Shown piece after piece: positions 18,100 to 31,056 of a stretch of 64,000 bases of DNA. The notes beneath the pieces are model-generated. The model did no database searches and was not told the DNA's origin. It saw only the letters and a list, made by a program, of their open reading frames with translations. Position numbers and translations under genes: made by a program. This DNA comes from an uncultured Gemmatimonadales bacterium (GTDB lineage Bacteria > Gemmatimonadota > Gemmatimonadetes > Gemmatimonadales > GWC2-71-9): NCBI GenBank assembly GCA_963771275.1, contig CAVYSW010000010.1:512001-576000 (forward strand). The letters run 5' to 3'. Position 1 is the first letter of the stretch. Each line of letters opens with the position of its first letter.

Positions 18100-19242
18100 A
18101 TGTCCCAGCCGCCGTTCTCACCTCCCGGGTCCCCTGATCCGGCGAGGCCGCTTGCCCCGCCCGACTTGCCTCCCCAGGACCTCGAGTGCGTCCCGGTCGA
18201 GCGCGCCGAGACGATCCCCGCCCGATGGTACCGCGACCCGGGGTTCCACGATCTCGAGCGTGACGCAGTGTTCGCGCGCAGCTGGCAGCACGTCGGGCAC
18301 ACGAGCCAGCTTCCCGAGGTCGGCGACCATCTCATCGCCATGGTGGCGCGCCGGCCGGTCCTCCTCGTGCGGGCGGCCGACGGCGCGATCCACGCGTTCT
18401 ACAACGTCTGCCGCCATCGCGGCGGGCCGCTCGCCCTGAAGGACGGGCACGCGCACATGCTGCAGTGCCGCTACCACGGCTGGACCTATCGGCTGGACGG
18501 CATGCTGCGCGGCGTCCCGCACTTCAACCGCACCGAGCTGTTCGACAAGGAGGACTACGGACTCGTCCCGGTCCGGCTCGCGGAGTGGCAGGGGCTCCTC
18601 TTCGTCCATCTCGAGCCCCACCCCGCGCCGCTCGACGGCTTCGTCGCCGGGATCGGCGAGCGGCTGGCGCCGGCGCGGCTCGACGCGCTGCGTTTCGCGA
18701 GACGGGTGGACTACGAGGCGCGCTGCAATTGGAAGGTGTACGTGGACAACTACCTGGAAGGCTATCACGTGCCGCACGTGCACCCGGAGCTCTGCGCGCT
18801 GTACGACTTCCAGGCCTACCGCACCGAGCTCTCCACGTGGTACTCCTTGCAGGTCGGCCCGCTGTCCGGCAAGGACACGCCCTACGGCGTGTCCTTGGGT
18901 GAGGCGCTGTACTACTGGGTGTTCCCCAATCTGATGCTGAACATCCTGCCCGGCCGCCTGCAGACCAACGTCGTGGTCCCGCTGGCGCCGGACCGGTGTG
19001 GGGTGATGTTCCGGTACTACTACGCCGACGTGGAGTCTGCGGCGGGCCGGAGCGTGATCGAGAGCGACCTCGCGTTCTCCGACGCGGTGCAGCGGGAAGA
19101 CATCGAGATCTGCGAGCGCGTGCAGGAAGGACTGGAGTCGGGAGTGTACGACCGCGGCCGGTTCTCGGCCGACATGGAGGCTGGCGTGCACCACTTCCAG
19201 TCACTCGTGAAACAGGCGTTTCGGCGGCACCTCGCCCGCTGA
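18100..19242 (+). CDS. Rieske non-heme iron oxygenase alpha subunit (choline monooxygenase-like)
   Basis: NVCRHRG...CRYHGW Rieske motif; NWK...DNYLEGYH.P.VH iron site; QREDI.ICE.VQ.G. Confidence 0.92.
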   Translation: MSQPPFSPPGSPDPARPLAPPDLPPQDLECVPVERAETIPARWYRDPGFHDLERDAVFARSWQHVGHTSQLPEVGDHLIAMVARRPVLLVRAADGAIHAFYNVCRHRGGPLALKDGHAHMLQCRYHGWTYRLDGMLRGVPHFNRTELFDKEDYGLVPVRLAEWQGLLFVHLEPHPAPLDGFVAGIGERLAPARLDALRFARRVDYEARCNWKVYVDNYLEGYHVPHVHPELCALYDFQAYRTELSTWYSLQVGPLSGKDTPYGVSLGEALYYWVFPNLMLNILPGRLQTNVVVPLAPDRCGVMFRYYYADVESAAGRSVIESDLAFSDAVQREDIEICERVQEGLESGVYDRGRFSADMEAGVHHFQSLVKQAFRRHLAR

Positions 19243-19338
19243 GCGCCGGGCCGCGGGGGGCCCCGGAGGCTCAGCGGGGATCGGCAGGGCTTCCGGAACT
19301 CTGCGACACCACCGGTGGTTATTAGGGGGCGGGAGTTC

Positions 19339-19455
19339 ATGATGTGCCAGCGAGGTCACTTGCTCTGCATCCAACGGCTCGCCTGCGCGTGTGGCTGCGC
19401 GCGGGACGGGTCGAGGTGTCGCGACGGCTCGGCTGGCGTCGCTCCCGACGGCTGA
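19339..19455 (+). CDS. Putative Cys-rich leader peptide (38 aa) of cysE-cysK
   Basis: GGGAG-ttc-ATG; MMCQRGHLLCIQRLACACGCARDGSRCRDGSAGVAPDG*, six Cys; below the ORF-track cutoff. Confidence 0.65.
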   Translation: MMCQRGHLLCIQRLACACGCARDGSRCRDGSAGVAPDG

Positions 19456-19484
19456 GCGCTGTCGGCAGCCGGCAGCGAGCATCT

Positions 19485-19520
19485 GGACCGCGGCGCCTGT
19501 TGGTCGCGGTCCCTTCGTTC
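19485..19520 (+). terminator. Attenuator-like hairpin upstream of cysE
   Basis: GGACCGCGGC-N8-GTCGCGGTCC followed by CTTCGTTC. Confidence 0.55.
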
Positions 19521-19542
19521 GAGGAGGGATCGAGGATCGGGC

Positions 19543-20244
19543 ATGCTGGAGAATTTGGGCGAGGACATTCGGGTGGTGAAAGAGCGTGACCCGGCCGCGC
19601 GGACCACGCTCGAGATCCTGCTGTGCTACCCGGGCCTCCACGCGGTGTGGTTCCACCGCGCGGCGCACGCGCTGTGGGGCGCCGGTCTCAAGACGGCCGG
19701 CCGGTGGCTGTCGCACGTGGGGCGGTTTCTCACGGGCATCGAGATCCACCCCGCGGCGGTGATCGGCCGGCGGTTCTTCATCGACCACGGCATGGGCGTC
19801 GTGATCGGTGAGACGACGGAGATCGGCCACGACGTGCTGCTGTATCAGGGGGTCACACTTGGCGGCGTCTCCCTGGAGCGTACCAAGCGCCACCCAACCC
19901 TCGGCAACAACATTGTGGTCGGTGCCGGGGCGAGGATCCTCGGGCCCGTGCGGATTGGCGACGGGGCGCGGGTCGGCGCCTCGTCGGTGGTCGTGACCGA
20001 CGTGCCGGCCGGGACCACCGTGGTGGGGATTCCCGCGCGCCCGGTGAAGCCGCGCGCGGGGGAGACGGAGCAGCAGATCACCCTGCACCACGAGCGCATC
20101 GCGGACCCGGTAGACCATGTGCTCGCGGCGATCGAGTCGCGGCTCGGCGCCGTGGAGCGTACGCTGCGGCGCCACGCCGAGCGCGAGCGCGGCGCAGACG
20201 AGGCCCTGTCGCGCGCGGTCGGCGCGCGGGATTACGAGATCTGA
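19543..20244 (+). CDS. cysE: Serine O-acetyltransferase
   Basis: RDPAA, YPGLHA, GIEIHP.A.IG..FFIDHG.GVVIGET, KRHPT. Confidence 0.97.
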
Positions 20245-20290: not shown

Positions 20291-21271
20291 ATGGCGCGCA
20301 TCTTCGAGGACATCACCGAGACCATCGGCAACACCCCGCTCGTCCGCCTACGGCGCCTGACCGACGGAGTCACCGCGGACGTGCTGGCCAAGCTCGAGTT
20401 CTTCAATCCGCTCTCGAGCGTGAAGGACCGCATCGGCGTGGCGATGATCCAGGCAGCCGAGCGGGCCGGGACGATCAAGCCCGGCGACACGCTGATCGAG
20501 CCGACGAGCGGGAACACCGGGATCGCGCTGGCGTTCGTGGCGGCGGCGCGCGGCTACCGCCTGATCCTCACGATGCCGGACACGATGAGCGTCGAGCGGC
20601 GGGCACTGCTGCGCGCGCTCGGGGCGGAGATCGTGCTCACGCCGGGGAGCAAGGGGATGAAAGGCGCGATCGCCATGGCCGGCGAATTGCTGCGTCGGCA
20701 TCCCGGCGCGTTCATGCCGCAGCAGTTCGAGAACCCCGCCAATCCGCAGATCCACCGCGAAACCACGGCGGAGGAGATCTGGCGGGACACCGATGGCGCG
20801 GCCGACATCCTGGTCGCCGGGGTCGGCACCGGCGGCACGCTCACCGGTGTCGCCTCCGTGCTCAAGCGACGCAAGCCGGCGTTCCGTGCCGTCGCCGTCG
20901 AGCCCACCGCGTCGGCGGTGCTCTCCGGCGGGCAGCCCGGCGCTCACAAGATCCAGGGGATCGGCGCCGGCTTCGTGCCCGACATCCTCGATGTCTCGTT
21001 GATCGACGAGGTGGTCGCGATCGACGACGACACGGCGTTCGCGACGGCGCGCCGGCTGGCGCGGGAGGAAGGCATCCTCGCCGGGATCTCGTCGGGTGCG
21101 GCCGTTGCGGCGGCGCTCCGGGTGGCCGCCCGCCCGGAGAGCACCGGCAAGACGATTGTCGTGATCCTGCCGTCGAGCGGCGAGCGCTACCTCACGACGG
21201 CCCTCTACCGGGACATCCTCGACGAGGTGGCGGCCATGCGGGCGGTGGAGGAGGCGCCGGCCACCGTCTAG
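20291..21271 (+). CDS. cysK: Cysteine synthase A
   Basis: [45 protein letters not shown]. Confidence 0.97.
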
Positions 21272-30959: not shown

Positions 30960-31056
30960 TGGCGGGAGCGTGTGGGAATCGAACCCACCGGAGCCGCCAA
31001 TGGCGCCTCCCAACGGTTTTGAAGACCGCGCGGGACACCAGCCCCAATCCACCCCC
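30960..31056 (-). tRNA. selC: tRNA-Sec(TCA)
   Basis: About 97 nt, anticodon loop CTTCAAA, long variable arm, GGTTCGATTCC T-loop, encoded GCCA end. Confidence 0.92.

Follow-up and report, generated by a model that had tools for sequence, protein, structure and literature searches.

A candidate cysteine-sensing leader-peptide attenuator upstream of cysE–cysK in a Gemmatimonadales bacterium

The genes for serine O-acetyltransferase (cysE) and cysteine synthase A (cysK) lie side by side on the forward strand of the window, by which we mean the whole 64,000-nt stretch of DNA analysed here, from an uncultured Gemmatimonadales bacterium. A Rieske oxygenase gene lies upstream on the same strand and ends at 19242, leaving a 300-nt gap (19243–19542) before cysE. 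This gap contains a small open reading frame (ORF) with a Shine–Dalgarno-like motif, followed by two overlapping hairpins (Table 1). The ORF has two candidate ATG codons, and, judging from the sequence, the second (19342) is the better spaced start relative to the GGGAG motif. Its six Cys codons begin at 19345, 19366, 19384, 19390, 19396 and 19417, and no two of them are adjacent. An earlier note on this DNA had described the ORF with its GGGAG ribosome-binding site and Cys-Ala-Cys-Gly-Cys cluster, the hairpin with its pyrimidine tail, a 10-bp helix with two G-U pairs between the ORF and that hairpin, and a further hairpin at 19510–19529; our analysis reproduced all of these features together with their coordinates. 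The leader peptide matched no NCBIfam family, and contigs covering the leader from four of 18 sequencing runs were all identical to the window, giving no variation to analyse.

Table 1 Features of the cysE–cysK leader region in the window (strands and hairpins numbered as in the text).
Feature	Position	Strand	Basis or remark
Shine–Dalgarno-like GGGAG of the leader ORF	19331..19335	+	Sequence; 3 nt to ATG 19339, 6 nt to ATG 19342
Leader ORF (38 codons; codons 3, 10, 16, 18, 20 and 27 encode Cys)	19339..19455	+	
1:2 pause/protector hairpin (predicted) over the Cys cluster, −28.3 kcal/mol	19375..19413	+	Folding only
Control-codon cluster Cys16-Ala-Cys18-Gly-Cys20	19384..19398	+	Sequence; Cys16 and Cys18 conserved in G437
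Strand 2a, predicted antiterminator	19410..19423	+	Two registers
Strand 2b, second predicted antiterminator, starting six codons after Cys27	19435..19445	+	Prediction only
3:4 terminator-type hairpin, 10 bp, −20.3 kcal/mol	19485..19512	+	All pairs conserved in G437
4:5 hairpin, an alternative that excludes 3:4; −16.1 for the core, −22.3 when extended	19507..19532	+	Immediately 5′ of the ribosome site of cysE
Pyrimidine tail CTTCGTTC, 4 T of 8	19513..19520	+	
Likely Shine–Dalgarno of cysE, GAGGA, 6 nt before ATG	19532..19536	+	Sequence; spacing inferred
cysE, serine O-acetyltransferase	19543..20244	+	TIGR01172, 238 bits (cut-off 210.65)
cysK, cysteine synthase A	20291..21271	+	TIGR01139, 470 bits (cut-off 350.95)

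Two segments of the ORF are predicted to compete for strand 3 of the 3:4 hairpin. Strand 2a may pair in either of two registers: the one proposed earlier joins 19414–19423 with 19489–19498 (10 bp, two G-U, −16.9), and a homologous register joins 19410–19417 with 19487–19494 (−7.4). This strand lies about six codons 3′ of the last clustered Cys codon, a placement common to the relatives described below. Strand 2b could pair with 19485–19497 over 11 bp with a 2-nt bulge (−17.2); no counterpart was seen in G437, the ortholog described below. In folding, the predicted 1:2 hairpin overlaps strand 2a at its 5′ part but not beyond. The alternative 4:5 hairpin, within whose span lies the 19510–19529 hairpin of the earlier note, is as strong as 3:4. 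Between strand 3 and the 3′ half of the ORF, the best duplex scores −19.2, a value that 69% of 2000 shuffles equalled or exceeded; for RNA this rich in G+C, the strength of the window’s antiterminator thus does not go beyond chance. We also observed an 8-bp perfect complement of strand 2a at 19302–19310, upstream of the leader start, which could act as a protector if transcribed; the candidate helix, 19303–19310 with 19415–19422, has a predicted energy of −15.6 and was set aside. A 38-nt look-alike of the hairpin elsewhere in the same genome lies within the lpxB coding sequence and was dismissed as a chance match.

We found no sigma-70-type promoter in the window’s gap, and no curated RNA family in Rfam reached its gathering score in 19000–19800 (best E 0.15), so we make no T-box or riboswitch assignment. 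The U-tail is weak, as the earlier note had remarked: it holds 4 T in 8 nt, and a standard terminator scan of the gap returned no hit, the 3:4 hairpin failing it. For this genome, so few U are not out of the ordinary: of 216 strong post-gene hairpins, 49 have at least 4 T among the 8 nt that follow (20 have at least 5), compared with 5 of 216 for the 8 nt before the stem.

The cysteine content of the ORF is unusual for DNA of this composition. Among 5000 dinucleotide shuffles of the 300-nt gap, an ORF with at least six Cys codons arose once, and at least four Cys within 11 codons arose eight times. Genome-wide, with our own gene calls (3266 genes), the ORF ranks sixth for Cys among 2170 upstream ORFs, with p 2e-3 when it is read from an in-frame GTG at 19315. 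Five upstream ORFs are equally Cys-rich or richer, and for the four of these that were inspected the next genes are, as far as recognisable, unrelated to sulfur. Cys richness alone is therefore significant only because the locus is cysE–cysK.

Stronger evidence comes from an ortholog in another genus of the window’s family (G437), in which CysE is 72% and CysK 81% identical and the gene order is the same. Here, a 33-codon leader ORF starts 205 nt upstream of cysE, compared with 204 nt in the window, and is colinear with the window’s ORF; its Cys codons, at positions 6, 10, 16 and 18, are likewise not consecutive. In an ungapped comparison the two leader peptides agree at five of 32 residues, three of which are Cys10, Cys16 and Cys18, encoded by identical codons. 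Apart from Cys, they share two of 32 residues, and the nucleotide identity of the leaders is 43%. At least three aligned Cys residues occurred in 1.5% of 100,000 codon permutations. All ten pairs of the 3:4 hairpin are kept, with two compensatory changes and one one-sided change in this comparison of two sequences only, and the G437 hairpin is followed by T7. Thus, the Cys-rich upstream ORF and the covarying stem that the earlier note suggested seeking in orthologous loci both occur in this second genus. A weaker 1:2 hairpin (−15.6) is predicted by folding over the same codons of G437, and its 4:5 counterpart is weak (−7.1), with five pairs kept and one compensatory change. About 45 nt upstream of the G437 leader lies a promoter-like site, TTGACG-17-TAACGT; the window has no promoter-like site at that place.

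On sequence comparison, the G437 leader is the only one shown to be homologous to that of the window. When the leader DNA was searched against 401 genomes of the phylum, all matches were short and scattered (best E 3e-5 outside G000, the window’s own genome), and G437 was not among the matches listed. A pattern scan of metagenomes found two loci, each with a leader that matches that of G437 exactly; being the same leader, they add nothing independent. At one locus (L145:290–900) the leader and 5′ part of cysE are identical to those of G437, but the neighbouring genes are a universal stress gene and one resembling iscR, and the 3′ half of cysE is different. This sequence is probably a chimeric assembly, and we left it out as an independent case because of its foreign flanks.

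We extended the comparison to the wider phylum. A cysE of the window’s type is present in 5 of 400 genomes of the family at E 1e-45, in 1 of 400 of an order sample, in 1 of 231 of another order and in 3 of 13 of another class; a CysK search of the family matched 37 of 400 genomes, and 30 loci were examined. A Cys-cluster upstream ORF was defined as one with at least three Cys within 11 codons, located within 330 nt upstream, and 3 of 113 loci were left out as too short. By this rule, the six adjacent cysE/cysK operons that we detected in the phylum each have a Cys-cluster ORF, and the five besides the window’s all have a hairpin with a U-tract. Two of them (G428 and G524) have the order cysK–cysE and Cys-run leaders starting with TTG and CTG, followed by a hairpin and T6 or T8, respectively; one from Gemmatimonadetes (L095) has six consecutive Cys in its leader, and one from the same class but another order (G149) has a Cys-Phe-Cys-Cys-Ser-Cys cluster, each with a terminator. 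Consecutive Cys codons are present in the leaders of all four of these cysK–cysE relatives. Among lone cysK loci of the family, including two from the unpublished genomes G100 and G531, none of 26 had a Cys-cluster ORF (one more was too short), nor did any of eight adjacent cysE/cysK operons from other phyla. In all, 9 of 97 single-gene loci had such an ORF, and none of the 97 had it together with a terminator. Inspection by eye of three cysE-only loci from the other class revealed no Cys leader near the gene.

A CysE tree of 112 sequences (FastTree, N-terminal 185–190 residues) places the six operons in three lineages, and we therefore count them as about three independent observations. The window and G437 fall in a 22-member clade (support 0.99), to which about 20 metagenome CysE proteins belong (P0002–P0021, CysE identity 64–92%, with P0002–P0009 at 82–92%); G428, G524 and L095 group together (0.99), and G149 stands apart. 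The leaders of the six operons vary in length and sequence, yet the distance from Cys cluster to strand 2 and the terminator recur. Because cysE is rare in the family, yet every adjacent pair has a leader and the pairs span three CysE lineages, the control would seem to have been either carried along with the genes or gained repeatedly. Together, the G437 leader and hairpin and the four further operons of the phylum with Cys leaders support the earlier note’s interpretation of the locus as a cysteine-sensing attenuator.

Several other loci in the survey have features of their own. Short ORFs with three consecutive Cys lie upstream of cysE in an Acidobacteriia locus (L092, −201 to −144 of cysE) and a Gammaproteobacteria locus (L069, −177 to −90), both with no U-tract terminator by our rule. 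In G149 (L192:245–379) the Cys leader is followed by two hairpins before the U-tract, an arrangement that suggests a cascade and not a direct 2:3 switch. In many genomes of one genus (L166–L187), a recurring TTAT(T/C)CTTG, resembling an extended −10 element, lies 25–60 nt upstream of a lone cysK. The gene neighbourhood of cysE in G023 (L002) is trmJ-cysE-iscR-iscS-like and differs from that of the other Gemmatimonadota loci, which may reflect transfer or mis-binning.

On the basis of the comparative and folding data, we consider it very likely that the cysE–cysK leader exerts some form of Cys-sensing control, and probable, with somewhat less assurance, that it is a trp-type ribosome-mediated transcription attenuator sensing charged tRNA-Cys. 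In the proposed mechanism, the leader ORF would be translated while it is being transcribed. With Cys-tRNA in short supply, the ribosome would wait at Cys10, 16, 18 or 20 (or at Cys27), so that strand 2a (or 2b) stays available to pair with newly emerging strand 3; 3:4 could then not form, and RNA polymerase would read into cysE–cysK, with the freed strand 4 pairing with the purine stretch that follows it. With ample cysteine, the ribosome would run on to the stop codon and, during synthesis of strand 3, would cover 2a first and 2b next, so that 3:4 would form before the pyrimidine tail and transcription would end near 19520. In this genome, such termination would probably be of modest efficiency.

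We examined this switch in a capture model, in which a mask covers the RNA as far as 13 nt beyond the A-site and folding extends to the end of strand 3. In the window, with each of three ribosome footprints, strand 3 is captured by strand 2a until the ribosome is at about codon 23 and by strand 2b from codon 24 to about codon 30, and from codons 32–34 on there is no capture from within the ORF. Under this model a ribosome at Cys16, 18, 20 or 27 would thus give antitermination, and only one near the stop codon would permit 3:4, in line with the earlier proposal that stalling at codons 16–20 leaves 19414–19423 free. In G437, G428, G524 and L095, modelled capture holds on the Cys cluster and collapses three to five codons after it; G149 showed no switch in this model.

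Equilibrium folding gives a different picture. In the window, the finished 3:4 hairpin stands at 0.79–0.99 at every ribosome position; in G437 it falls to 0.03–0.14 at codons 13–16, and when the 5′ RNA is free to fold it stands at 0.95–1.00 in both. A two-sided ribosome mask yields a small, noisy contrast in both, with 0.47–0.58 at Cys16–20 against 0.32 at the stop in the window and, in G437, values of 0.00 at Cys16, 0.64 at Cys18 and 0.19 at the stop. Because the completed 3:4 hairpin wins at equilibrium in the window, the switch has to operate kinetically, which is the accepted view of the classical attenuators. The folding models speak for the plausibility of the switch and are not proof of it.

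We weighed four other accounts of the locus. The same Cys sensor might act on translation, with 4:5 hiding the cysE initiation region and 3:4 serving as an anti-sequestrator. The weak U-tail fits this account, as does the strength of 4:5 (−22.3, far above the −7.1 of its G437 counterpart), which in the model dominates folding once the RNA reaches cysE and raises the cost of opening −20 to +13 from 8.5 to 14.7–16.1 kcal/mol, an addition of 6–8 kcal/mol; moreover, translational Cys attenuation has been demonstrated in mycobacteria (10.1101/834739). Against it, Cys stalls in the model favour 2a:3 or 2b:3 and with them a free strand 4 and the 4:5 hairpin, so that cysE would be off just when cysteine is scarce; nor do they open the cysE Shine–Dalgarno and AUG. 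The likely Shine–Dalgarno and AUG are, in addition, about equally accessible in all three modelled states (7.3–8.4 kcal/mol to open 19532–19536 through +13), and all five relatives have U-tract terminators. Since 4:5 has the wrong sign as an off switch in this simple model, which also weakens the translational fall-back offered by the earlier note, we read it as a lock on, or damper of, read-through, and regard translational output as unlikely. The note’s other fall-back, coupling of the Cys sensor to Rho-dependent termination in a tna-like manner with the hairpin as a pause site, appears very improbable. The tail is weak, rho is encoded in all five genomes tested, and a Rho mechanism has been proposed for actinobacterial cys leaders (PMC1262725), but the 87 nt from the ORF stop to cysE contain 26 C and 36 G and are predicted to fold into stems, unlike a rut site, and the relatives have intrinsic terminators.

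The locus could instead be a decaying relic of an ancestral attenuator like that of G437, having lost its promoter and tail, with cysE–cysK constitutive or read from the upstream Rieske gene. The missing promoter-like site, the replacement of the G437 T7 by CTTCGTTC, the noisy switching under the two-sided mask and the upstream gene on the same strand all suit such decay. It fits poorly with an ORF that is open, has a good Shine–Dalgarno and carries six Cys against four in G437, with the retention of all ten stem pairs despite 43% leader identity, and with U-poor tails being the norm in this genome; we consider it improbable, slightly more so than translational output. There is, finally, a very slim chance that the ORF is a chance frame, or that its product is a small peptide, rich in Cys and of a metal- or redox-binding kind, that acts in trans. 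The equally Cys-rich ORFs elsewhere in the genome, none of the four inspected preceding a recognisable sulfur gene, show that such frames occur, and the spaced cysteines (C-x5-C-x-C) could bind metal. A functional peptide would sit uneasily with the two non-Cys residues of 32 shared with G437 and with the lack of an NCBIfam match, and neither form of this account explains why six operons whose leaders differ in length and sequence keep the same spacing and terminator.

A more elaborate reading is conceivable, although we hold it to be fairly unlikely. The window may contain a two-stage sensor in transition, in which an ancestral stage (Cys16–20 with strand 2a) has been joined by an added one (Cys27 with strand 2b), both at a six-codon distance. 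Jointly with this, and no likelier, the ancestral U-tract would have been rewritten into a strong hairpin by the cysE ribosome site, so that the leader tunes both read-through and initiation. If true, this would provide a worked example of an attenuator gaining sensing codons and shifting its output.

The genomic setting bears on the supply of sulfide and on possible related leaders. No CysD or CysH was shown in G000, which is 97% complete, or in G437; in both, cysE–cysK would thus draw sulfide from elsewhere. G000 contains a dsrAB-type cluster (C3:1364000–1382000; L153, L154) with dsrD, dsrL/dsrN-like, dsrMKJOP, dsrC, sat and qmo-like genes, names that reflect our reading of the translations, with NIR_SIR as the only tool match. 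From its gene content, this cluster appears to serve dissimilatory sulfur metabolism and could feed sulfide to CysK. Upstream regions of the other cysK-like genes of G000 and G437, read by eye, show no evident Cys leader, and trpE in these two genomes has no leader, its neighbouring genes abutting. In G000, a trpE match at C3:1855854–1857246 (−) is split between two frames, owing to a frameshift or an assembly error. This genome also has two rho-like genes (C3:302065–303171 and C3:448546–449784), the second copy being found in four other tested genomes as well, and the window itself carries a tRNA-SeC gene at 30960–31056 (−).

The control principle itself is old and a textbook matter; for cysteine genes in this bacterial group we found no published case. 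Our literature search, by title and abstract and largely within non-subscription papers, returned no terminator-type Cys attenuator and no paper that joins Gemmatimonadota with leader-peptide attenuation. The locus would therefore add a terminator-type cysteine attenuator to a phylum for which that search found no leader-peptide attenuation. It further suggests that a sensor of this kind can be marked by Cys codons that are spaced and not in tandem, a point of weight for genome searches that use a poly-Cys rule. G437, with its strong tail, and the window, with its weak one, form a natural pair for testing the need for a U-tract in a G+C-rich bacterium.

Classical leader-peptide transcription attenuators include trpL, hisL, thrL, leuL, pheL and ilvL. 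Like these, the window’s leader has a short, Shine–Dalgarno-led ORF enriched for codons of the operon’s product, an antiterminator strand predicted just 3′ of the control codons, and a G+C hairpin with a pyrimidine tail before the first gene. Unlike them, it would sense cysteine, its control codons (10, 16, 18, 20 and 27) are spaced and not in a run, and it has a U-poor tail, two candidate antiterminator strands and a strong 4:5 hairpin thereafter. In Firmicutes, cysteine genes are controlled by the Cys T-box and the S-box. The proposed mechanism resembles these in controlling termination at cysteine genes by end-product status; it differs in that sensing would be by a translated ORF, with no Rfam match at gathering score. 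Attenuation has reportedly been surveyed comparatively by Lopatovskaya et al. in 2010. In the available portion of Naville and Gautheret (PMC2965389), cysteine occurs only in a reference and Gemmatimonas is absent. Seliverstov et al. 2005 (PMC1262725), who treat trp attenuators of Actinobacteria, also predicted cys/cbs leader peptides in Mycobacterium, Propionibacterium acnes and Bifidobacterium longum. Those leaders share with ours a Cys-codon ORF upstream of a cys operon, but, in the text available to us, are described as having Cys runs near the stop codon and as lacking conserved terminator hairpins, whereas in the window the Cys codons lie mid-ORF and the hairpin is conserved. Closest in what they sense are the mycobacterial polycysteine leaderless small ORFs of the Ms5788A class, treated by Canestrari et al. 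(10.1101/834739), who showed translational Cys attenuation in mycobacteria. In that class, as we propose here, charged tRNA-Cys is gauged by Cys codons in a short ORF upstream of cysteine-related operons; members of the class are, according to the same source, leaderless with consecutive Cys codons, and the dissected case hides a ribosome-binding site. Going by these features, the window’s leader does not look like a member of the class: its ORF has no consecutive Cys and follows a Shine–Dalgarno-like motif, its terminator-type hairpin is conserved, with a U-tract in relatives, and stalling is predicted not to free the downstream ribosome-binding site.
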